IMG/VR virus record: IMGVR_UViG_3300044695_008209
Location: 64,001-128,000 of that record
Strand: one strand, 5' to 3'
DNA from: a virus
DNA length: 64,000 bases
This document shows positions 1-56,222 of the stretch, piece by piece. How positions within the stretch are numbered: the first letter of the stretch is position 1; each line of letters begins with the position of its first letter. Below the pieces are notes generated by a model. That model did not search any database, was not told the DNA's origin, and worked only from the letters and a program-made list of their open reading frames with translations. Made by a program: the position numbers and the translations under genes.

Positions 1-571
1 GGCAGACCGGGTTCCGGTGCAGACTCCCGTGCTCGAGGCCAAGGCAGTGCAGCTGACCCTCGGCGCGCTGGAGTCGTACAACCCGGTGAAGGCCCAGCTG
101 AACACGCACGTCACGAACACGCTGAAGGGCATGCACCGCTTCGCGACCACGCGCCAGAACATGACCCGGCTGACCGAGGCACGCCGGCGTCTGGTTGGAC
201 CATACCAGCGGGCCCTCTCGCGCCTGAAGGACAAGCTCGAGCGAGAGCCCACCGTCCTTGAGCTCGCCGACGAGATGAAGGAGTCGCCCGCCAACGTGGA
301 GAAGCTCCTGCTGGAGATGAAGGACGATCTCATGTCCTCTGGCGCGATGGATGACCCCTTCCTCGACGAGACCTCGGAGTCGCGCCTCAAGCTCCAGCTC
401 ATCCGGTACAGCCTCACCCCCGACGAGAACACGGTCCTGGACTACCTCATGGGCACGGGCGGTAGGCCGAAGATCGAGAGCACGGGGGCCATCGCGAAGC
501 GCGAGGGTTGGTCCGACTCTCGCGTCTCCCAGATCAAGAACGCGATCATGCGCAAGTGGAAGGGCAAGTGA
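1..571 (+). CDS. Sigma-70-family (FliA/SigF-like) RNA polymerase sigma factor, 5'-truncated by the window edge
   Basis: Frame open from base 2. Region-2-like ALESYNPVKAQLNTHV, region-3 EREPTVLELADEM, region-4 HTH LTPDENTVLDYLMG...TGAIAKREGWSDSRVSQIK. Confidence 0.8.
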   Translation, partial: ADRVPVQTPVLEAKAVQLTLGALESYNPVKAQLNTHVTNTLKGMHRFATTRQNMTRLTEARRRLVGPYQRALSRLKDKLEREPTVLELADEMKESPANVEKLLLEMKDDLMSSGAMDDPFLDETSESRLKLQLIRYSLTPDENTVLDYLMGTGGRPKIESTGAIAKREGWSDSRVSQIKNAIMRKWKGK

Positions 572-44918: not shown

Positions 44919-45514
44919 ACCACCTCATGTACCGAGCCTGCTTCCGCGAGCTGGAGAAGTCCGCTGGGCTGGGGACCCGCGCAGCGGCCTGGGCCGGCGG
45001 GCACGCCGCACAGGTCGGTGGTGCCGTGAAGCACTTCGCTCACGACGTGGGGGATGCCGCACTGGGCACGGTGCGCCCCAGCGCGTGGAAGGCGGGGGTT
45101 CAGGCCGGCAGAGAGGAGATGAAGAAGGGTCCCTTGGCCGCGGGCATGACGGCTCTCATGGTGCCCATGACCGCCGCCGACACGGTGCACACCATGAAGA
45201 CGAAGGTGGACCCCGTCACCGGGCGGCAGATCGGTCTCGGGGAGCGAACTGCCGTCGCCGCGGGACGCATCGGTTCCTCGGTGGCCGGGATGCGCTACAT
45301 GAACGCGCAGAGCGGAGGCTTCTTGCGCGGCATGGGCGTTCAGGCGGGCGGGGCGGTGCTCACCGACGCGGTCACCAGCCGGGTCGGCCGCGCAGCTGAC
45401 AACTTGGCCGCGCGCAAGCCGCCTGCGACAGCGATCGGCGCAGGTGTCGGTACCCCCAACCGCGTCGTGCCTCACCTTGGGGGCGGGACACCCGTCGCTC
45501 GAGGAGTCGTATGA
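44912..45514 (+). CDS. Gly/Ala-rich basic protein, possible processed virion/ejection protein
   Basis: Start GTG 44912 or ATG 44927; ELEKSA followed by GLG and G/A-rich amphipathic sequence; ATGA overlap with portal. Confidence 0.65.
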   Translation: MVDHLMYRACFRELEKSAGLGTRAAAWAGGHAAQVGGAVKHFAHDVGDAALGTVRPSAWKAGVQAGREEMKKGPLAAGMTALMVPMTAADTVHTMKTKVDPVTGRQIGLGERTAVAAGRIGSSVAGMRYMNAQSGGFLRGMGVQAGGAVLTDAVTSRVGRAADNLAARKPPATAIGAGVGTPNRVVPHLGGGTPVARGVV

Positions 45515-47622
45515 GCTCCGACCCCACCCGCTTCTCTGGTCGCTCGACTACGGCCTCCTGGACGAGCCGCGGCTACGGCGTGCGGTACCCGTCGCCCTTC
45601 TTCGACGTCGCGCAGCAGTTCCTCCCGGAGAACGTGCACCAGCTGCACCTCTGGTGCCGCTTCTACTTCCTGACGAACCCCGTCATCAACGTCGCCTGTC
45701 AGAAGATGGCGGAGTACCCCGTCACGCCGCTCGTGTGGGAGACCGACGACAGCGAGCTCAAGTCCCTCTACACCAGCCTTGAGGCCCACCTTCGCCTGCG
45801 CCAGTTCCAGGTCGAGATCGGCCTGGACTACAACGTCTACGGAAACGGCTTCGCCAGCGTCTTCTTCCAGTTGGAGAAGTACCTGGTCTGCAAGAACTGC
45901 AAGGAGCGGTACCGCGCCTCGAAGAACCGCAGCCGCTACAAGTGGAAGAACGGGCGCTTCTTCCTCACCTGCGGGAAGTGCCACACGGAGGAGTACGCGG
46001 ACCAGGCCGACACCTACCCGCGGAACGTGCGCGGGGCCCGACTGGTCCGGTGGAACCCCGAGAACGTCGAGATCAAGCACAACGAGGTCACCGGCAACAG
46101 CCGCTACTACTACCGGCTCCCGCGGAGCGTCACGAACGACGTAAGGCTCGGGGACCCTGAGACCATCGAGACCCTCCCCTACCAGTTCCTCGAGGCGGCC
46201 CGCACTGGCAAGGCGCTCCTCTTCCACCCGGACAACTTCTTCCACCTGAAGCGCCCCACCATCGCCCAGAAGGACCAGGGCTGGGGATCGCCGCTGATCT
46301 TCCCGCTCCTCAAGGACGCCTTCTACCTGCAGGTCATGAAGAAGGCGCAGGAGAGCCTCCTTCTTGAGCACGTCGTCCCTCTGCGCATCGTCTTCCCGGG
46401 CCCCACCACAGGGGGGAACGACGGTCCCTTCGGTGCGTACAACCTGACGAACTGGAAGCAGAAGATCGACATCGAGCTGGCCATGTGGAAGCGGGACCAT
46501 AACTACATCCCGATCCTGCCCATGAACATCGGGTTCCAGCAGATCGGCGGGCAGGCCAAGGCGCTCATCCTGCACCAGGAGTTCCGCATCCACGCCGAGC
46601 AGATGCTCGCCGGTGCGGGCATCCCGGTGGAGTTCGTCTACGGCGGCCTCCAGTGGAGCTCCTCGAACACCTCGCTGCGCGCCTTGGAGAACACCTTCCT
46701 CGGCTACAACATCGAGCGCTTCAACCTCACGCGCTTCGTCGTCGACAAGGTCGCTGCCCACATGGGGTGGCCGACGATCCCGTTCCGCTTTGAGAAGTTC
46801 CGCATGGCGGACGACCTCCAGCGCGCGATGTTCTACTTCCAGCTCAACCAGGCGCAGAAGGTCTCGGACCAGCGCCTGTTGGAAGAAGTCGGCGAGGACT
46901 GGGACACCGAGAGCGAGCGCATCGCCGGCGAGCGCGTGAAGCAGATCGACGCGCAGAGGAAGTCGCAGCTGGCGACTGCCGAGATCCAGGGCGCAGCGCT
47001 GCTCCGCACTTCGCGCTACCAGGCCAAGGCCAACGAGCTGACGATGCTCGCGCAGAACAACGCCCAGATGCAGATCCAGCAGGCCCAGGCAGACGCCGGG
47101 ATGCTGGCGCCACCTGGAGCCGACCCGAACGCACAGGCAGCCGGCGGCCCGGCCGCGCCTCCGGCGGGAGCAGCGCCAGGAGCTCCGGGCAGCCCCGGGG
47201 CCGGTGCGCCGCCCGAGGACCCGGCTGCAGCCGGGCCGCCGGCACCCGTAGACCCCAACGCTGCACCCCCTGCCGGGGGACCCGCCATGTACGCCGAGAA
47301 CGCAGGAGCGCCGAACACCTCGGCAGCGCCCGTCGCCATGGCTGGGATGGAGTCGCCCCTGCAGATGGGCCAGGGCGGGATGGACCTCCGGTACGTCGCA
47401 CAGCGCGCGGCGGCCTACCTTCGCACGGTGGAGGCGCAGAACGGCAAGCAGGCGATGTTCCAGGAGCTGCAGAAGCTCCAGATGGAGAACCCGCCCATGT
47501 ACCAGCTCGTGGTGCAGCTCCTGAACGACACCGGATCTGCGGCAGATCCGATGAACGCGGCCAAGTCCCCGACCACGCCTCGCTCGGCAGCACAGCGGGA
47601 CCCCAGCCGGACTGTGGGCTAA
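45511..47622 (+). CDS. Portal protein with Zn-finger insertion and Pro/Ala-rich tail
   Basis: YFLTNPVINVACQKMAEY; IGLDYNVYGNGF; LVRWNPENVEI; FHLKRP...GWGSPLI...LQVMKKAQE resemble portal motifs. Confidence 0.8.
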   Translation: MSSDPTRFSGRSTTASWTSRGYGVRYPSPFFDVAQQFLPENVHQLHLWCRFYFLTNPVINVACQKMAEYPVTPLVWETDDSELKSLYTSLEAHLRLRQFQVEIGLDYNVYGNGFASVFFQLEKYLVCKNCKERYRASKNRSRYKWKNGRFFLTCGKCHTEEYADQADTYPRNVRGARLVRWNPENVEIKHNEVTGNSRYYYRLPRSVTNDVRLGDPETIETLPYQFLEAARTGKALLFHPDNFFHLKRPTIAQKDQGWGSPLIFPLLKDAFYLQVMKKAQESLLLEHVVPLRIVFPGPTTGGNDGPFGAYNLTNWKQKIDIELAMWKRDHNYIPILPMNIGFQQIGGQAKALILHQEFRIHAEQMLAGAGIPVEFVYGGLQWSSSNTSLRALENTFLGYNIERFNLTRFVVDKVAAHMGWPTIPFRFEKFRMADDLQRAMFYFQLNQAQKVSDQRLLEEVGEDWDTESERIAGERVKQIDAQRKSQLATAEIQGAALLRTSRYQAKANELTMLAQNNAQMQIQQAQADAGMLAPPGADPNAQAAGGPAAPPAGAAPGAPGSPGAGAPPEDPAAAGPPAPVDPNAAPPAGGPAMYAENAGAPNTSAAPVAMAGMESPLQMGQGGMDLRYVAQRAAAYLRTVEAQNGKQAMFQELQKLQMENPPMYQLVVQLLNDTGSAADPMNAAKSPTTPRSAAQRDPSRTVG

Positions 47623-47632
47623 AGGGCGGCCC

Positions 47633-48022
47633 CTACCGGGGGACCGCCAACATCAGGACGGAGCTCGCCTCGCCACACGCGTCGCACTCCCCGTCTTTCC
47701 AGTACGGCTGCACTGCGAACCCCCCGGTGCAGGTCGAGCACACCCACACGTAGTCCGGCGCCCTGTCCCCCAGTTCCTCCGACAGGAGCGGACATTCCCC
47801 GCAGTTGACGTCCCCGCACATCCCCCCGCGGTTGTACCTGCCGGCCGGCAGTCGAGCGCGCGCACTTCTGGTGCTGCGCTCGAGCAGGGGGCAGAACGCG
47901 AGGAGCCCTCCCTCCCCCGGGATCGTCGGGTCTACTCGAAGGGCCGTCCGTCCGGCGGGTTCATCCAGCTGCGTGCGATCTCGAAGCCGCCGGAGCGGGG
48001 AGTCTCGTCGCCGCTCAGGCAC
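47633..48022 (-). CDS. Cys-rich protein (8 Cys, possible double Zn finger)
   Basis: FCPLL, MCGDVNCGEC, CSTC, CDAC. Confidence 0.7.
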   Translation of the reverse strand: MPERRRDSPLRRLRDRTQLDEPAGRTALRVDPTIPGEGGLLAFCPLLERSTRSARARLPAGRYNRGGMCGDVNCGECPLLSEELGDRAPDYVWVCSTCTGGFAVQPYWKDGECDACGEASSVLMLAVPR

Positions 48023-48024
48023 GG

Positions 48025-48273
48025 CTACCCTGCCTCTGGGCCTTCATCGAGTTTCCGAAGTCTACGATGAAGGCCATCGCGCCTCCCACGAACGCGAAGA
48101 CCATCATCCATGCCAGTGGACTCATCAACATCTCCCAGATGCGCCTCGGCGCTCGGTCCTGATACGGCGTTCTCGACGAGCTGCGCAAAAGCGCGTAGCT
48201 CGGTCCCCTGCGGTGCGGTGCTGCGCCTCTGACGGGGCACCTTCGGACGTCCCGTGGTAGATATGTCGGACAC
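48025..48273 (-). CDS. Hypothetical protein (82 aa); an overlapping 38-aa transmembrane ORF at 48015..48131 is an alternative
   Basis: GGAGG RBS before GTG 48273; stop 2 nt before the next start. Confidence 0.45.
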   Translation of the reverse strand: MSDISTTGRPKVPRQRRSTAPQGTELRAFAQLVENAVSGPSAEAHLGDVDESTGMDDGLRVRGRRDGLHRRLRKLDEGPEAG

Positions 48274-48289
48274 GGTCACCTCCACTTCT

Positions 48290-48295
48290 CTTATG
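48290..48295 (-). promoter_or_regulatory. Candidate phage promoter element CATAAG
   Basis: GGCATAAG 16 nt before GTG 48273, back-to-back with the RNAP gene. Confidence 0.5.
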
Positions 48296-48318
48296 CCGGA
48301 TAGCGGAGAACTTCTACG

Positions 48319-51300
48319 ATGCCGAACCTGAACCCGGAAGCCGCCTTCGAGAGCCTCAAGGGACAGGTGGCGGCGACGATCCGGGCACAGTTCCCTTTCG
48401 AGGGTGCCACGCGCCGGCTCGAGATCCTGGACGTCCTCTTCGACGAGAAGTCCAACACTGCCGCGGATGCGCACCACATCGACAACCTGGAGGAGCAGCT
48501 CAAGGCACGCACGACGGGCATGACGTGGGGCGTGAAGGTCCGCGGCCACCTGCGCCTCGTGGACAAGGCCTCCGGGCACACCGTCGAAGAGGCGACCGTC
48601 ACCCTGACCAACCTCCCCAAGATCACGCGCCGCTACTCCTACATCATCGACGGGCAGGAGAGGCAGCACGACAGCGTCTTCCGCTCGAAGTCGCGGGCCT
48701 ACCACCGCATCGCGTCGAACGGCGACATCCAGGCACGCTGGAACCTGGCACGCGGCCACGGGTTCGACCTCACGTACGACCCGGTGAAGGGCCGGATGGT
48801 CATGACGATCGGGGACTCGAACATCCCGCTCTACTCCGTGCTCCGCGTCCTCAACGTGGGGGACGCCGCGATGGAGCGGCAGTGGGGGCCCGAGGTGTTC
48901 CGCGACAACGTCAAGGCGGCGAAGCCGGGAGACGTGGACAAGATCTACACGGCGCTGCACCTGCGCATGGCTGACCGGTCTCCCGGCTCTCCGGCGCAGC
49001 GCGCAGAGAAGATCCGCGAGTACTTCGAGCAGGAGACGGAGGTGCTGCCGGACGCGATGAAGGCCGCCTTCGGCAAGGAGTACACCACCGTCAACGGAGA
49101 GAACCTCCTCCTCTCGTCCGGGCGACTCCTCGCCATCCAGAAGGGCCGCCTGAAGGAAGACCCTCCCGCGCACGAGCTCCCGGACGACCGGCAGGCCCTG
49201 TCCGCGAAGTACCTCGCGACGACGGAGGACTTCGTGATCGAGGCTCTTCGCCACCACGAGGCGAGCCTGCGGAAGCAGGTTCACGACCGCATCGACAAGC
49301 CCGAGTACAGCATCACCGACATCATGTCGCCGAACTCCTACGGGCGCGTCGTGCTCTCTCCCTTCCAGCACGCCCAGCGCCCGGAGCAGACCAACCCGCT
49401 GCAGTTCCTCTCCGGGTACATGCGCACGACCATCCGTGGCAAGGAGTTCGGCGGCGTCGGCGGCGAGAAGATCAACCTGGACGTCGAGAAGGAGCTGAAC
49501 CCCACCCACCTCGGGTTCATCGACCCCATCCAGACCCCCGAGGGGGAGGACACGGGCATCGCGCTCAACCTGCCGCTCGGGATCTCCCTGACGCGCGGGA
49601 CTGCCCGCCCCGGCACGAAGAGCCGCGCATCTCCGGGGCAGGAGATCCGCACGAAGGTCTACGACACCAAGGCCGGGCAGCTCGTGCTGGCGACGCCGGC
49701 GGAGCTCGAGCACGAGATCGTCGCGTACCCGGACCAGGTGCGCTGGACAGCCGGCCGTCCTACTCCAATCGCGAACGAGGTCATCTGCTACGACGAGCAG
49801 CGGAAGACCTCGAAGCGCCCGTGGTCCAAGGTGCGGTACGTGCTCCCCTCCGCGAAGGCGCTCCTCTCCTTCAGCGCGAACCTCATCCCCTTCCTGCAGA
49901 ACAACAACGGCAACCGGGCGATGATGGCGGCCAAGCAGCAGGAGCAGGCACTCGCGCTGGTACACCGCGAGGCCCCGCTCGTGCAGGTCAAGACGGACGG
50001 CACCAGCACCTTCGAGCACGTCGTCGGGTCCTTCGTCACGCACACGGCCCCTGAGGCAGGGGTGGTGAAGCACGTTGAGCCGGGAGCCATCCACCTCCAG
50101 ACACAGTCGGGGCTGGTGAAGATCCCCACCTACAACCACTTCCCCTTGAACGGAGGGAAGAACTCGCTGCACTCCATCCCGGTGGTGAAGGCGGGGCAGT
50201 CGGTGGAGAAGGGGGCCCTCCTCGCGGACTCGAACTACACGAAGGACGGGGCCCTCGCTCTCGGGGCGAACCTCCGCGTGGCGTACGTGCCTTGGAAGGG
50301 CCTGACCTTCGAGGACGGCATCGTCGTGTCCGAGAGCGCCGCGAAGCGCATGTCGTCCGACCACATGCACGCGCTCGAGATCACGGTCTACGCGGGCATG
50401 GTCGGAGCGGAGCCCGGCGCGATGGCGAGGTGGCGCGACTATGCGACGCCGGCGCGCGGCACGTCCGAGCACGTCAGCAAGCTGGACGACCGCGGGATCA
50501 TCCGCGAGGGGACAGTCGTCCACACGGGCGACGTCCTCGTCGCCGTTCTCAGCCCGAAGCAGCCGAATGAGTCTGACTTGGCCGCGGGGCGCATCCACAA
50601 GACGCTGGCGAAGTCGTACCGGGACGCCTCCCTCGTCTGGGACCACGACTACTCTGGCAAGGTCGTGCGCGTGCTCGTCTCGGAGGCGATGAACCGGAAG
50701 CACGTCACGGTCCACATCGCGACGGAACAGCCGCTGGTGGTCGGAGACAAGCTGGCTGGTCGACACGGCAACAAGGGCATCATCAGCCGCATCGTGCCGG
50801 ACCACGAGATGCCCCACACGGCTGACGGCGCTCCGGCAGACCTGCTGCTCAACCCCGCCGGGGTACCGAGCCGCATGAACATCGGTCAGGTCCTGGAGAC
50901 CGCGGCCTCGAAGATCGCCCAGAAGACGGGCAAGCCCTACGTCGTGGAGAACTTCGTCTCGGGGGTCGACTACTCCGCGAAGGTCATGCAGGAGATGCAG
51001 AAACACGGGCTGACGGACACGGAGGAGATGTTCGACCCCGTGACCAAGCGGTCCATCGGCAAGATCATGGTCGGCCCGCAGTACATGCTCAAGCTCCACC
51101 ACCAGGTGGAGAAGAAGGCGACCGCGCGCTCGATGGAGACCGGGTACACCCACACTGGTGAGGCCCCGAAGGGGTCCGGCATCCCTGGCGGTGGCCAGAA
51201 GATGGACATGCTCACGACGTACGCGATGCTCGCGCACGGGGCCAACCACAACCTCCGCGAGGCGTACACCTTCAAGAGCGACGGGGACCAGAACGCCGCC

Positions 51301-54300
51301 TGGGCCGCCGTGATCACGGGCAACCCGTTGCCGCCGCCGCAGCCCACGCGTGGGATGTCGCACTTCCAGAACTACCTGCGCGCCCTCGGCGTGAACGTGG
51401 AGAAGCGGAAGGACGACTACCACCTCTCCCCGCTGACGGACCTGCACCTGCTCGGCGACGAGAAGCGTGGGTTCCGCGGCATCTCGAACGGAGAGATCAA
51501 GCTGCCCGAGAAGCTCTCCGTGGCGCGTGGAGCGCGCACGGTCGAAGAGCACGGCGGCCTGTTCGACCCGAAGGTCACTGGCGGCATCCAGGGCAAGTTC
51601 TGGAGCCACGTCACCCTGGCGGAGCGGATGCCGAGCCCGCTCTTCGAGCCTGCCATCCAGACCCTGACGGGCCTGACCAAGAACCAGTTCAACAGTATGG
51701 TGGGTGAGAAGGGCTACGTCGACGGGAAGTCCGGGTTCCACACCATCGTCGAGCGGCTGGCCGCCCTCGACGTCGACACCGAGCTGAAGAAGGCCCAAGC
51801 TGAGGTCGGGAAGTCGAGCCGCGCCACGCTGAGCCGCTCGATGAAGAAGGTCCGCTACCTCGAGGCCCTCAAGGCGAGCGGGCTCACCCCCCTTGAGGCG
51901 TACACGAACAAGTACCTGCCCGTCCTGCCGCCGTCGGTGCGACGCGTGTCGATCGGACTCGATGGAACACAGGTTCTCGACGATCGGAACCCGCTGTACC
52001 TGGCGGTCGGCCACGCGAACGGGATCCTCAAGGCGGCGAAGCCCTCCACCCCCCACGAGGACATGCAGAAGGCGCGCGCGTCCCTCTACAGCAGCATCCG
52101 CTCCCTGAAGATGACCGGCATGACGACCAGCCCCGGCTCCGGCAAGCCGCGGCACATGCAGGGCCTGATGGAGCTCCTATCCGGCAAGACCGAGGACCAC
52201 GGCGCCCCCAAGGAGAGCTTCTTCCAGGAGGGCGTGCTCGCGCGTCGCCAGGACCTGTCCGGGCGCTCGACGATCGTGCCGGAGCCGGCCCTCGGTCTCG
52301 ACCAAGTCGGGGTGCCCCGCCAGATCGCCATGGAGATGTACAAGCCCTTCGTCGTGCGTGAGCTCGTGCGAGCGGGCAAGACTCCCATCGACGCGCTGAA
52401 GTGGGCGACCGAGAAGAAGGACCACCCGCAGGTGATGGACGCGCTCGAGCGCGCGGTGTCCGAGCGGCCTGTGTTCCTGAAGCGGGACCCGTCCCTGCAC
52501 AAGTTCAGCATCATGGCCTTCCACCCGAAGATCGTGGACGGCAGCGCCATCAAGATCCACCCGCTGGTCACCGGAGGCTTCAACGCCGACTTCGACGGGG
52601 ACACGATGGCCCTCTACGTCCCGGTGTCTGCCGAGGCGGTGGAGGAGGCGCACAAGATGCTCCCCTCGAAGAACCTGTTCTCGCCCACCCACTTCGGCCT
52701 GCTTCCCGTCCCCGGGCAGGACTCGCTCCTGGGCATCTACCAGGCCACGAAATGGGGCACCGAGGTTCCCGTTCCCGCGGGCACCACTGCCGAGCGCGCG
52801 ATGCAGATGATGCACGACGGGAAGCTCAAGCCGACCGACGTGATCACCATCGACGGGAAGAAGACGACCGCGGGGCGCCTGTCTCTCGCCAGGTTGCTTC
52901 CGACTGAGATGCAGGGGAACGAGAAGCTCCTGCACGACTCGGCCTTTCGCCTCAACAAGGATGGCGTCGAGAAGATGCTCTCCACGGTGGCGCGGGAGCA
53001 CGACAAGGGGTTCTCCGGGACGGTCGACGGGTGGAAGGACCTCGGGAACCACCTGTCCTACCTGAACGGCAGCTCCTTCTCCATCAACGACTTCCACGAC
53101 GGGGTCGCAATGCGCGACCGCGTCCTGAAGCCCTACGCCGAGCAGGAGAAGAAGCTCCACGCCACCCCCATGTCCCCGCGAAAGCGGGATCAGGAGATCG
53201 TCAAGCTCTACCAGGGGGCGCAGGCAGAGCTGAAGTCCGTCGGCAAGGTCAGGTACGACGCAGGCAGCAACCGCGTCTGGGAGTGGGCGCAGTCCGGGGC
53301 CCGCGGCAACTGGAACCAGTTTGCGCAGCTGACCCTGGCGCCCGTCCTCGTCGAGGACTTCGCCCGACGTACCGTCCCTGTGCCCATCACCAAGTCCTTC
53401 GGGGAGGGGCTCTCCGTCTCGGAGTACTGGGCGTCGATGCACGGAGCTCGTAAGGGCACGCTTGACCGTGCGCAGGGGACCCGTGAGCCCGGCGCCGTCC
53501 AGAAGGACATCGTCAACACGACCATGGGGATCCAGGTCACGGCGGAGGACTGCGGCTCGACCGAGGGCAAGCAGATGTCCCTGGGCCACAACGACATCGT
53601 CGGGCGCTTCCTCGCGCACTCCGTGAAGATCGGGACGGTCGACGTCCACGCGGGCGAGCTCATTACCCCCGCGCTCGTCTCGCAGGCGAGGAACGCGGGC
53701 GTCGTCGAGTTCGTCGTGCGCTCTCCCCTCTTCTGCAGGATGGGGAAGGGGGTCTGCGCGAAGTGCTACGGGCACAACGAGCGCGGAGGCCTGCACGCGA
53801 TCGGCACGAACCTCGGGGTCATCGCGGGGCAGGCGCTCAGCGAGCCCATCACGCAGCTCGCGATGAAGACCTTCCACACAGGCGGTGTTTCCAGCGCCGG
53901 CCAGTCCAGCGCCGTGGACTCCTTCAAGCGGGTGAAGCAGCTCTTCATGGTCCCCGACAAGCTGCCGGACAAGGCGGTGCTCGCCGTCATCGGGGGCAAG
54001 GTCGGGAAGATCTCCGCAGACGCACGCGGTGGGTTCACGGTCGACATCGAGGGCAAGCCGCACCGCGTCGTCACGGGGCACCTCCTCGAGAACGTCAAGA
54101 CGGGGGCTACCGTGCACCGCGGTGACCCGATCTCCACGGGCCCCATCGACCCGCACGAGCTCCTGGAGCACACCAAGAGCATCGGGCGGACGCGGAACTA
54201 CATCACGGACGAGGCCACTGCCGCGTACCAAGGCACGGTTCGGCAGCGGAACGTGGAGATGGTGGTCCGTGGGATGACGAACCTGACCGAGGTCCACAAC

Positions 54301-54630
54301 GCGCCTCCTGGAAGTCCCTGGCACCGCGGGGATATGGCACCGCTCTCTGCCGTCGACGAGCACAACGCCATCGCGACTGGCGAAGGCCACGAGACCATCT
54401 CGCATACCCCCACTCTTCGGGCGATGACGCTCGTGCCACTGTCCGGAACCGAGGACTGGATGGCACGGCTCAACTATCAGCGCCTCAAGGAGACGTATAC
54501 TGAGGGTGCTGCCCAGGGATGGAAGTCCAACATCCACGAGCACCCGATCCCCGGCCTTGCCCACGGGGCAGAGTTCGGGCTACATCCACCAAAGACCCGC
54601 GCACCACCGCCTTCTGGAGCACACCGATGA
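48319..54630 (+). CDS. rpoBC: Fused beta/beta' multi-subunit-type DNA-directed RNA polymerase (2103 aa)
   Basis: Beta: THLGFIDPIQTPEG, VAYVPWKGLTFEDGI, GDKLAGRHGNKG, NPAGVPSRMNIGQ, YMLKLHH. Beta': GRSTI, RDPSLHK, NADFDGD (52582-52602), SGARG, EPITQLAMKTFHTGG. One open frame. Confidence 0.97.
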   Translation: MPNLNPEAAFESLKGQVAATIRAQFPFEGATRRLEILDVLFDEKSNTAADAHHIDNLEEQLKARTTGMTWGVKVRGHLRLVDKASGHTVEEATVTLTNLPKITRRYSYIIDGQERQHDSVFRSKSRAYHRIASNGDIQARWNLARGHGFDLTYDPVKGRMVMTIGDSNIPLYSVLRVLNVGDAAMERQWGPEVFRDNVKAAKPGDVDKIYTALHLRMADRSPGSPAQRAEKIREYFEQETEVLPDAMKAAFGKEYTTVNGENLLLSSGRLLAIQKGRLKEDPPAHELPDDRQALSAKYLATTEDFVIEALRHHEASLRKQVHDRIDKPEYSITDIMSPNSYGRVVLSPFQHAQRPEQTNPLQFLSGYMRTTIRGKEFGGVGGEKINLDVEKELNPTHLGFIDPIQTPEGEDTGIALNLPLGISLTRGTARPGTKSRASPGQEIRTKVYDTKAGQLVLATPAELEHEIVAYPDQVRWTAGRPTPIANEVICYDEQRKTSKRPWSKVRYVLPSAKALLSFSANLIPFLQNNNGNRAMMAAKQQEQALALVHREAPLVQVKTDGTSTFEHVVGSFVTHTAPEAGVVKHVEPGAIHLQTQSGLVKIPTYNHFPLNGGKNSLHSIPVVKAGQSVEKGALLADSNYTKDGALALGANLRVAYVPWKGLTFEDGIVVSESAAKRMSSDHMHALEITVYAGMVGAEPGAMARWRDYATPARGTSEHVSKLDDRGIIREGTVVHTGDVLVAVLSPKQPNESDLAAGRIHKTLAKSYRDASLVWDHDYSGKVVRVLVSEAMNRKHVTVHIATEQPLVVGDKLAGRHGNKGIISRIVPDHEMPHTADGAPADLLLNPAGVPSRMNIGQVLETAASKIAQKTGKPYVVENFVSGVDYSAKVMQEMQKHGLTDTEEMFDPVTKRSIGKIMVGPQYMLKLHHQVEKKATARSMETGYTHTGEAPKGSGIPGGGQKMDMLTTYAMLAHGANHNLREAYTFKSDGDQNAAWAAVITGNPLPPPQPTRGMSHFQNYLRALGVNVEKRKDDYHLSPLTDLHLLGDEKRGFRGISNGEIKLPEKLSVARGARTVEEHGGLFDPKVTGGIQGKFWSHVTLAERMPSPLFEPAIQTLTGLTKNQFNSMVGEKGYVDGKSGFHTIVERLAALDVDTELKKAQAEVGKSSRATLSRSMKKVRYLEALKASGLTPLEAYTNKYLPVLPPSVRRVSIGLDGTQVLDDRNPLYLAVGHANGILKAAKPSTPHEDMQKARASLYSSIRSLKMTGMTTSPGSGKPRHMQGLMELLSGKTEDHGAPKESFFQEGVLARRQDLSGRSTIVPEPALGLDQVGVPRQIAMEMYKPFVVRELVRAGKTPIDALKWATEKKDHPQVMDALERAVSERPVFLKRDPSLHKFSIMAFHPKIVDGSAIKIHPLVTGGFNADFDGDTMALYVPVSAEAVEEAHKMLPSKNLFSPTHFGLLPVPGQDSLLGIYQATKWGTEVPVPAGTTAERAMQMMHDGKLKPTDVITIDGKKTTAGRLSLARLLPTEMQGNEKLLHDSAFRLNKDGVEKMLSTVAREHDKGFSGTVDGWKDLGNHLSYLNGSSFSINDFHDGVAMRDRVLKPYAEQEKKLHATPMSPRKRDQEIVKLYQGAQAELKSVGKVRYDAGSNRVWEWAQSGARGNWNQFAQLTLAPVLVEDFARRTVPVPITKSFGEGLSVSEYWASMHGARKGTLDRAQGTREPGAVQKDIVNTTMGIQVTAEDCGSTEGKQMSLGHNDIVGRFLAHSVKIGTVDVHAGELITPALVSQARNAGVVEFVVRSPLFCRMGKGVCAKCYGHNERGGLHAIGTNLGVIAGQALSEPITQLAMKTFHTGGVSSAGQSSAVDSFKRVKQLFMVPDKLPDKAVLAVIGGKVGKISADARGGFTVDIEGKPHRVVTGHLLENVKTGATVHRGDPISTGPIDPHELLEHTKSIGRTRNYITDEATAAYQGTVRQRNVEMVVRGMTNLTEVHNAPPGSPWHRGDMAPLSAVDEHNAIATGEGHETISHTPTLRAMTLVPLSGTEDWMARLNYQRLKETYTEGAAQGWKSNIHEHPIPGLAHGAEFGLHPPKTRAPPPSGAHR

Positions 54631-55028
54631 ACGCCTTCGAGAAAACCGCAGCCTTCTACGACACCGCCCTCTCTGCGCCGACGACCGACAAGGTCGCCAG
54701 CGTCTACGAGATCTACAAGCAGGCCGGCTTCGACAAGGACGCGGGACTCGCCTCCGGCATCGGAGAGGCCGTCGCCGCCGGCGGGAAGTGGGTCGGGCAC
54801 CAGGTCGGGCGCGTGGGTGGCGCGATGCAGCGGACAGCCTTCCAGGCGTCGAAGGGCGTCCCCACGCAGGGGCAGGCCATGCTCCACGCCGCCGGACAGG
54901 GCGTGCGCAACCTGGGCAAGGGGATCGCGGCGAACCCGGGCACCGCAGCCGGCGTCGCCGGCGTTGGCCTCGCCGGTATGGGGGCCGCGGGAGTGGCCGG
55001 TCGGATGTCCGCCCCTCGCCAGCAGTAG
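54627..55028 (+). CDS. Small Gly/Ala-rich protein with four K-x-A motifs (133 aa)
   Basis: ATGA overlap with the RNAP stop; FEKTA, TDKVA, IYKQA, FDKDA then a glycine-zipper-like tail. Confidence 0.75.
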   Translation: MNAFEKTAAFYDTALSAPTTDKVASVYEIYKQAGFDKDAGLASGIGEAVAAGGKWVGHQVGRVGGAMQRTAFQASKGVPTQGQAMLHAAGQGVRNLGKGIAANPGTAAGVAGVGLAGMGAAGVAGRMSAPRQQ

Positions 55029-55049: not shown

Positions 55050-56222
55050 ATGACGACCAAGAAGCAGGGGACGCATGACCTCCCGAACAAGGGCAAGTCC
55101 ACGGGCGGGGGCGCGGGGACGCCTGCGCTCATCCAGGCGGGGCGGATCCTCGACGTCGACCCACTGAGGTGGACGTGCGTCATCAAGACCGACGGCGGAG
55201 GCGACGTCTCGAGGACTTTCCGCGACGTTCCACTCGGCGGCATGTACCTGCACCCCCTCGGAGATGGCATCTTCGTGATGCCCGAGCCTGGTGCGCTGGT
55301 GTGGGTCTGCAAGCCGAGCGAGGGGGACGCGTCCGCGTTCATCGTCGCCTACCGGCCCTACCCGCGCAGGGACAACGTCACCTCGACCGAGGCCAACAAG
55401 CCGACGACCACCAGCAATCGTCCGCGCCTCAGTCCCGGCGACTTGGCGTTTCTCGGACGAGACCAGAACGGGCTCTTCGTGCGTCGAGGGCAGCTGACGG
55501 AGATCTTCGGAGGCCCGCTCGCACGGACGCTCTACCAGGGACGCACCGGCACGATCCACTCCTTCGCCCAGACGGTGAAGCTCGACGTGTTCGGCGGCTC
55601 AGTCCGCTGGGACGTGGACCGCCCCGAGCTCGACCCGGACGGCCACCAGGGAACGCGCGTGGACCTGAAGGCGAAGGAGTACGCGGACGACCGCGCCTAC
55701 GTCTCCAGGATCCAGATCGGCAAGTTCGACGCCAACACCACCATCTCGGAGCCCGTCCTCCGCGTGCAGGTCTTCTCGAGTGGAGATGCGGAAGAGGCGT
55801 CGCTCGTCCAAGCAGCATCCCTCGCGGCGAACAAGGACGGCGAGGTCGAGCTCTCTACGACTGGGAACGTGACGGTCGACGTGGTGGTGGGCGGCGCGCC
55901 GGTCGCGTCCGTGCACGTCTCGAAGGACGGCACGATCGCGATCACGGGGACCGCGGCCGTCGCGGTTCAGGGGACTTCGGTGACCCTCATCGCAGGTAGC
56001 ATGCAGATGGCTGTGGCCGGTGCCGGTGCCTCCGTCGGTGCCGAGGCCGGGGTCAAGACCAAGGTGTTGAAGGACCTGGCCTTCAGCACTGACGCCGCGG
56101 CTGCCTGGACCGAGGTCATGGCACTCTGTACCGCACTCGGACTGCCGAGCACGAACATCGCGAAGCATCTCGCCTCCCTGAGCGCAGCGGCCTACACCTC
56201 GACGGCGCTGGAGACTGAGTAG
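55050..56222 (+). CDS. Baseplate central spike protein (gp5/gpV/Gp138-like OB fold)
   Basis: GRILDVDPLRWTCVI...GIFVMPEPGALVWV...; beta-strand repeats at the C-terminus. Confidence 0.75.
   Translation: MTTKKQGTHDLPNKGKSTGGGAGTPALIQAGRILDVDPLRWTCVIKTDGGGDVSRTFRDVPLGGMYLHPLGDGIFVMPEPGALVWVCKPSEGDASAFIVAYRPYPRRDNVTSTEANKPTTTSNRPRLSPGDLAFLGRDQNGLFVRRGQLTEIFGGPLARTLYQGRTGTIHSFAQTVKLDVFGGSVRWDVDRPELDPDGHQGTRVDLKAKEYADDRAYVSRIQIGKFDANTTISEPVLRVQVFSSGDAEEASLVQAASLAANKDGEVELSTTGNVTVDVVVGGAPVASVHVSKDGTIAITGTAAVAVQGTSVTLIAGSMQMAVAGAGASVGAEAGVKTKVLKDLAFSTDAAAAWTEVMALCTALGLPSTNIAKHLASLSAAAYTSTALETE

Follow-up and report, generated by a model that had tools for sequence, protein, structure and literature searches.

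The 64,000-nucleotide stretch of viral DNA analysed here (positions 64,001 to 128,000 of IMG/VR record IMGVR_UViG_3300044695_008209; 'the window' below) carries a gene for a single-chain beta-beta' RNA polymerase at 48319..54630. All coordinates are those of the window, and features lie on the plus strand unless stated otherwise. The product, a protein of 2103 amino acids (aa; P0001), is, as judged from its sequence, the complete catalytic core of a bacterial-type multisubunit RNA polymerase in the form of one polypeptide. The gene is one uninterrupted frame with no stop codon before its end. Its ATG start is preceded by a Shine-Dalgarno-like GGAGAA, and the N-terminus (MPNLNPE) is kept in homologs from Met1.

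Architecture of the fused polymerase

The Pfam domains of the protein follow one another in the order expected of a fusion: Rpb2_3 and Rpb2_6, which belong to beta, and then Rpb1_2, Rpb1_3 and Rpb1_5, which belong to beta'. In the beta part Rpb2_6 scores 232 bits (cut-off 23.4) and Rpb2_3 28 bits (cut-off 21); in the beta' part Rpb1_2 scores 110 bits and Rpb1_5 73 bits. A phmmer search of the PDB retrieves bacterial beta' (E 1.6e-103) and bacterial beta (E 1e-82). The alignment with both bacterial subunits is colinear over the full length, at 28-31% identity.

To delimit the modules, the protein was aligned with E. coli rpoB/rpoC, eight bacterial operons and seven fused homologs. The beta module comprises residues 1-1033 (48319..51417) and the beta' module residues 1034-2103 (51418..54630). 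The beta active-site motif GRHGNKG (residues 814-820; 50758..50778) aligns with E. coli AGRHGNKG and is invariant or nearly so in 19 fused homologs. The Mg-binding motif of beta', NADFDGD (residues 1422-1428; 52582..52602), likewise aligns with its E. coli counterpart. The original prediction, that beta and then beta' catalytic motifs occur in a single frame, is thus borne out by the open frame, the Pfam order and the intact motifs. It had also located the join near 51400, which is accurate: the alignment puts it between residues 1033 and 1034 (nucleotides 51417/51418).

The tail of the beta module (...LGVNVEKRKDD, ending at about residue 1032) aligns with the C-terminus of E. coli beta (...LGINIELEDE), and the beta' module opens with YHLSPLTD, which corresponds to E. 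coli beta' residues 20-27 (IKIALASP). Since the end of beta abuts the equivalent of E. coli beta' residue 20, the join is direct. Three residues at the junction (L1036, P1038 and T1040) are invariant in the fused homologs. In cellular enzymes the C-terminus of beta and the N-terminus of beta' already meet at the place where the phage chain is joined.

The identical protein is on record in two contigs, and more than 100 clusters at 39-90% identity hold one frame through the junction. The frame at the junction is therefore not an accident of assembly.

Comparison with the E. coli enzyme

E. coli beta and beta' together comprise 2749 aa (1342 + 1407), in agreement with the figure of about 2750 against which the 2103 aa of the phage protein had been set. 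The description of the enzyme as 'shortened' stands in so far as it has fewer residues than that of E. coli, but this is mostly an effect of the yardstick. The segments of E. coli beta with no counterpart in the alignment are 1-23, 226-342, 935-1042 and 1128-1181; those of beta' are 1-19, 76-101, 129-158, 945-1130 and 1373-1407, together with a few short gaps. About 465 of the approximately 646 missing residues are lineage-specific insertions of E. coli (beta 226-342, 935-1042 and 1128-1181; beta' 945-1130), and many bacteria likewise lack these four large insertions.

The genuine losses, as they appear in the alignment, are the zinc ribbon of beta', a 30-residue clamp segment (beta' 129-158) and the termini. 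At the site of the deleted zinc ribbon (51556..51618) the phage protein has GLFDPKVTGGIQGKFWSHVTL in place of the domain with four cysteines (E. coli C70, C72, C85 and C88). All four cysteines and about 26 residues are gone in every member of the fused clade that was examined.

Both double-psi barrels, the bridge helix, the trigger loop and the second zinc site are retained (alignment to E. coli). The clamp helices and the flap tip, which are the sigma docking sites of cellular enzymes, have kept their length while their sequence has diverged strongly. In the rifampicin pocket, E and Y occupy the positions of E. coli D516 and H526, which suggests that the phage enzyme may be insensitive to the drug. 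A match to Peptidase_M23 at residues 1885-1939 was below threshold and was set aside as a similarity of barrel-sandwich fold.

Distribution of fused and related genes

The fused layout occurs in at least about 115 metagenomic protein clusters. The best 120 clusters from a collection of 5.8 billion proteins are 39-90% identical to the window protein, and almost all are 2040-2130 aa long with full coverage. Contigs carrying the fused polymerase reach about 217 kb. About 20 of these 120 clusters are longer because of intein or homing-endonuclease inserts. Inteins within the catalytic motifs of relatives are to be expected if the enzyme is essential and active.

The inserts are 180-515 aa long and several carry LAGLIDADG or intein Pfam domains. 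They occur at a few recurrent sites: after about residue 408 (TPEGE), at about 813-851 (GRHGNKG/PSRMN), at about 980, at 1428 (directly after NADFDGD) and at about 1851 (in the trigger loop). The relatives concerned are P0003, P0005-P0007, P0012-P0015, P0022, P0031, P0033, P0034, P0043 and P0081, and further P0089, P0091, P0107, P0111-P0113 and P0116.

A blind scan of IMG/VR for DNA encoding NADFDGD found more fused genes, forms with a split beta', small forms with separate subunits and many genes of giant viruses. The cultured phages Arash and Vibrio D69 have the same beta/beta' join, with beta' cut near residue 1520 into a second gene. The join must therefore be older than the divergence of these phages.

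Several other records deserve mention. Two IMG/VR relatives, L009 and L012, whose genes are 74-75% identical to that of the window, have identical junctions save for a deletion of one nucleotide in L012 (L012:12990-13140). There, beta ends at a TGA that overlaps the ATG ATG of beta' (an ATGA overlap), so that one base turns a fused gene into a coupled gene pair. This is either a real variant or an assembly error. Two contigs assigned to metagenome-assembled genomes (MAGs) carry a fused polymerase together with a portal gene and a sigma homolog: L015 (162 kb, Leptolyngbyaceae MAG) and L016 (204 kb, Bacteroidales MAG). They look like phage genomes binned in species-representative bacterial MAGs, and this may be a hint of the host or a contamination of the bin. 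Finally, Rhizobium phages RHph_TM30, Y65 and relatives (MN988521-MN988525, NC_070966 and others; about 150-207 kb) match the beta' part only (query residues 1097-1854, 25% identity). The matched proteins are annotated as beta' subunit, and the same search reported no match to beta.

A literature search for a fused phage enzyme of this kind, which included the jumbo-phage survey of Iyer et al. and did not cover subscription journals, found no description.

Phylogenetic position

Trees were calculated from concatenated beta and beta' with FastTree (61 rows, 1985 columns) and with IQ-TREE under LG+C20+F+G4 with posterior mean site frequencies (PMSF; 37 rows, 1956 columns). The bacterial rows were sampled from the best tblastn matches and represent the Candidate Phyla Radiation (CPR), Bacillota, Actinomycetota, Pseudomonadota, Bacteroidota, Planctomycetota and Omnitrophota. 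The alignment was made with the fast FFT-NS-2 method and the trees contain long branches. The approximately unbiased (AU) tests used the site-homogeneous model LG+F+G4, which is more prone to long-branch effects.

All bacteria lie on one side of a branch with a support of 99 (FastTree) or 98 (IQ-TREE). The fused clade, Arash and D69 form one clade with a support of 100 in both trees and a long stem. The AU test rejects a grouping of this phage clade with non-CPR bacteria (p 1e-4), with CPR (3e-7), and with Bacillota or Planctomycetota/Omnitrophota (p 1e-4 or lower). On these trees the fused clade, with Arash and D69, falls outside every sampled bacterial phylum. The phylogeny that the original prediction had proposed as a check thus places the window protein inside none of the sampled bacterial clades.

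These results bear on one alternative, namely that a phage recently captured a bacterial rpoB-rpoC operon, or that a chimera or frameshift artefact only looks fused. The relative L012, in which a single deleted nucleotide leaves beta and beta' in two frames, could be taken in its favour. Against it are the rejected placements, the position of the bacteria on one side of a well-supported branch, the fact that the fusion turns up again in over 100 independent assemblies and two lineages of cultured phages, and a guanine-plus-cytosine (GC) content that is uniform, at about 0.66, across the window. We consider this explanation extremely improbable.

The published mReC lineage of tailed phages was represented by two similar loci (L161 and L174), which form a long branch of their own. 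They are sister to the fused clade with a support of 82 in FastTree and are not resolved as its sister under LG+C20; the AU test does not reject the grouping. In L161 (IMGVR_UViG_3300026544_000002) the beta' gene (933 aa) precedes the beta gene (1023 aa), whereas in bacteria and in the fused genes beta comes first.

Four further loci (L027, L034, L042 and L054) come from MAGs labelled Pseudomonadales or Gammaproteobacteria, and their rpoB/rpoC fall in the CPR/Patescibacteria group. Both subunits are small (beta about 1130-1170 aa, beta' about 1235-1340 aa). Their placement suggests that the taxonomy given in the record titles is wrong.

Absence of alpha and omega

The window belongs to a phage genome in IMG/VR that is 182,777 bp long and has a completeness rating of 99% and a GC content of about 0.66. 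Profile searches of the whole genome found no match for alpha (PF01000, PF01193) or omega (PF01192) and no second beta or beta'. As positive controls, the alpha, omega, beta and beta' profiles matched all 14 reference genomes. A T7-type polymerase also gave no match in the whole-genome search, with a profile that had no positive control. The earlier statement that the window contains no alpha or omega gene therefore holds for the entire, 99%-complete genome. Three complete genomes, those of Arash, of Vibrio D69 and of a close relative rated 100% complete, likewise have no alpha.

One way to account for this is that the fused chain borrows the alpha dimer of the host, and perhaps omega, and that the phage simply does without those genes. 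With 28-31% identity to bacterial enzymes and alignment over the full length, the core could still have surfaces for docking alpha; the Helicobacter fusions keep alpha and engineered E. coli fusions assemble with it. The hosts of the clade, however, are likely to be very different (Salmonella, Vibrio and an uncultured host of 66% GC), so that many alphas would have to fit. The length of the stem branch and the divergence of the surfaces speak for an independent evolution, and phage precedents function without alpha. On balance we regard dependence on host alpha as unlikely.

A phage-encoded sigma factor

The 3' part of a gene for a sigma70-family factor lies at 1..571 of the window; the gene starts 316 nucleotides before it and encodes 295 aa (P0131). 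The protein is 31% identical to Arash gp10, annotated as a sigma factor (E 2e-21), and matches phrog_351 (sigma) with an E of 1e-7. The Pfam profile Sigma70_r3 is matched in all 21 aligned homologs (best E 3.9e-10); Pfam sigma regions 2 and 4 are not significant in P0131 itself. An AlphaFold (AF2) model has a predicted local distance difference test (pLDDT) score of 79.6, and all 50 of the PDB matches listed by Foldseek are sigma70-family proteins, aligned over about 240-270 columns. The sigma homolog shares a record with the fused polymerase in four of the five relatives searched, the fifth record being a 66%-complete fragment. Sequence, fold and co-occurrence all support P0131 as the sigma70-family partner of the polymerase. 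Its gene heads a run of very large co-oriented open reading frames (ORFs). The original prediction had mentioned neither this sigma factor nor the virion genes around the polymerase.

Weak Sigma70_r4 matches also occur at genome positions 25031 and 138645, in ambiguous overlapping ORFs. The N-terminus of P0131, MGLLLRAFEKRA, resembles that of a 133-aa ORF (window 54627-55028), MNAFEKTAA, in that these are the only two ORFs genome-wide to have the motif [FY][DE]K.A within 12 codons of a start; the motif occurs seven times in all six-frame ORFs. About 12 close homologs of P0131 have kept its leader, and that of the 133-aa ORF is absent in L009 and L012.

Genomic context of the polymerase gene

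Upstream of the polymerase is the gene for a portal protein (45511..47622), 30% identical to the Arash portal gp204 (E 3e-87). The same position of a portal gene is seen in L008-L016, L139, Arash and D69. The gap between portal and polymerase genes (47623-48318, about 700 nucleotides) contains no convincing plus-strand gene. It may hold minus-strand ORFs, including a hydrophobic one of 36 codons at about 48134-48025; Arash and D69 have a short plus-strand ORF here instead.

The ATG of the 133-aa ORF (54627..55028) overlaps the stop codon of the polymerase gene (ATGA). Its product has a Gly/Ala-rich C-terminus and is 59% identical at the amino acid level in L009 and L012. Directly downstream is a conserved gene of 390 aa (55050..56222), which also follows the polymerase in 10 relatives, with identities as low as 25%. 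The protein has weak PHROG matches to baseplate hubs. Foldseek relates it to the R2 pyocin spike and P2 gpV with a probability of 0.99-1.0, with an E of only about 5e-3 and from a poor model (pLDDT 58.7). Conservation, weak homology and this model indicate that it is probably a central spike or baseplate hub protein. A collagen-like tail-fibre gene comes after it. The order portal, polymerase, spike-like gene is preserved in relatives down to 25% identity.

PHROGs and Pfam gave no assignment for most neighbouring genes. When two large downstream ORFs were compared with phage records by tblastn, one gave an uninformative match and the other none. A scan around the polymerase gene for the sigma70 consensus promoter and for terminators found nothing above chance.

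Proposed mode of action

We think it reasonably probable, from the combined analysis, that the enzyme is an alpha-independent, sigma-directed polymerase, and that it is probably delivered by the virion. The phage enzyme would pair with its own sigma70-family factor and read phage promoters. The chain would fold without the alpha dimer and omega because, as we propose, tethering provides a 1:1 stoichiometry and intramolecular assembly. By analogy with Arash, the enzyme would be made late and packaged in the particle. Delivery with the DNA would then make early transcription independent of the host polymerase. Since the genome has no other polymerase gene, newly made enzyme may also act in later phases. 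Tethering may help the delivered enzyme to refold, and this would not be its sole explanation.

We favour this reading on the strength of the intact core and its alignment with bacterial beta and beta', the widely conserved fused layout, the inteins in catalytic motifs of relatives, the lack of alpha and omega genes, the sigma70-family factor, the portal/spike-like context, the Arash proteome and the existence of alpha-less precedents. In Arash virion preparations gp206 gave the most spectra (3516), gp216 gave 1210, and the sigma factor gp10 was covered to 100% (PMC10585845). Phage multisubunit polymerases without alpha include those of phiKZ and AR9, which have four or five chains (PMC7598289).

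A number of points weigh against it. The argument for packaging is drawn from gene context and one proteome, that of Arash. The polymerase has no N-terminal leader, and a candidate head-protein motif, K-x-A, is not enriched in it (9 seen, 12 expected). Tethered E. coli beta-beta' still assembles with alpha. Since the gap of about 700 nucleotides upstream may hold minus-strand ORFs, a late transcript shared with the portal gene is not established. Finally, the Arash proteome listed 116 of 272 proteins, including ribonucleotide reductases, and its authors allow for carry-over of abundant proteins (PMC10585845).

Some of these same points would suit an enzyme that is not a virion component. The host polymerase would transcribe the early genes, and the phage enzyme with its sigma factor would take over the middle and late ones, as do the non-virion polymerases of the phiKZ type. 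A single polymerase gene in the genome fits such a scheme, as do the lack of any packaging leader or processing motif, the contamination of virion preparations that the Arash authors consider possible, and an intergenic region that may split portal and polymerase into two transcription units. What it does not explain is why the position of the polymerase between portal and spike-like genes is conserved across the clade, why the sigma gene begins a run of very large co-oriented ORFs, and why, in Arash particles, the homolog has the highest spectral count and the sigma factor full coverage. We judge a purely intracellular role to be somewhat unlikely.

It is plausible, as had been suggested, that fusion makes alpha dispensable. 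Fusion is, however, neither necessary nor sufficient for the loss of alpha. The idea is weakened by the two-chain polymerases of Arash and D69 and the multi-chain enzymes of the phiKZ type, which also lack alpha, and by the cellular fusions reported in Helicobacteraceae and Wolbachia, which keep it.

The virion-delivered, sigma-directed reading can be taken further, to a self-sufficient holoenzyme of two proteins: the single-chain core and the phage sigma factor, with neither alpha platform nor omega, injected from the capsid. We advance this stronger version tentatively, and with rather more doubt than belief. If true, no simpler polymerase would be known that can still be aligned over its whole length with the cellular enzyme, and virion-delivered transcription would have a third route in addition to those of the N4 type and the phiKZ/crAss types.

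Significance

To our knowledge, no cellular multisubunit polymerase can do without an assembly platform of the alpha type. An enzyme that aligns with bacterial beta and beta', and yet apparently has no alpha, omega or zinc ribbon, would show which parts of the core are dispensable. It could also provide biochemistry and synthetic biology with a compact, sigma-programmable and possibly rifampicin-insensitive polymerase. Because cultured relatives exist (Arash and the Vibrio phages), these questions are directly testable. The fused lineage, which appears distinct from the published mReC set, also enters the debate on how phages acquired cellular-type polymerases.

Relation to known polymerases

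The closest known systems are Arash (gp206 and gp216, with the sigma factor gp10; OQ632216, PMC10585845) and the Vibrio phages D69, D148 and D181. They share with the window phage the beta/beta' join, the portal gene upstream, a homologous sigma factor (31% identity) and the lack of alpha, and their polymerases are about 29-31% identical to the window protein. They differ in that beta' is cut near residue 1520, with the second gene 0.6-5 kb downstream, whereas the window enzyme is one chain; in D148 and D181 the polymerase region also contains a homing endonuclease. Arash gp206 is annotated plainly as a beta subunit and the fusion is not discussed (PMC10585845). The window protein fits this Arash-like clade of fused polymerases: the join is direct, the zinc ribbon is deleted, the portal gene is upstream and a sigma homolog is present.

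The mReC lineage (PMC7481178) also consists of tailed phages whose beta and beta' are recognisable with cellular profiles and branch outside the cellular clades. The original prediction gave this lineage (Weinheimer and Aylward 2020) as a precedent. It does not appear to be the same clade. Supplementary Data 2 of that paper gives a separate beta (about 900-1560 aa) and beta' (about 890-1390 aa) for every contig and never the same protein twice, and the text mentions fusion only for crAss-like phages (PMC7481178). Since all mReC entries have separate subunit genes, the fused clade was not described among them. At only 27-29% identity to the window protein, the mReC-like loci L161 and L174 have lower bit scores than bacterial enzymes do.

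Among cellular enzymes, those of Helicobacteraceae and Wolbachia resemble the phage protein in having beta and then beta' in one polypeptide. They are full-length (about 2890 aa), retain the zinc ribbon and function together with alpha and omega. The phage fusion, on its separate branch, is an event independent of these. That cellular fusions exist in Helicobacter and Wolbachia, as the original prediction had stated, agrees with a passage in PMC7483510 that cites Lane and Darst 2010 and Zakharova et al. 1999 for rpoB-rpoC fusions in Helicobacteraceae and Wolbachia.

Polymerases of the phiKZ/AR9 type (PMC7598289) are likewise phage-encoded two-barrel enzymes with no alpha or omega, and one set is in the virion. 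Each is made up of four or five polypeptides; divergence is much greater, no sigma factor can be recognised and there are two paralogous sets. The window phage, in contrast, has one chain, one set and a sigma70-family partner.

Finally, passages in bioRxiv 10.1101/2020.03.07.982082, bioRxiv 10.1101/2022.12.01.518664 and PMC7481178 describe the crAss-like gp66, the tape-measure-fused RNA polymerase of P23-45 and YonO as having both barrels in one polypeptide, and the gp66 and P23-45 enzymes as delivered from the particle. By the same accounts these proteins are too diverged for beta/beta' profiles, whereas the window protein aligns with bacterial beta and beta' throughout.

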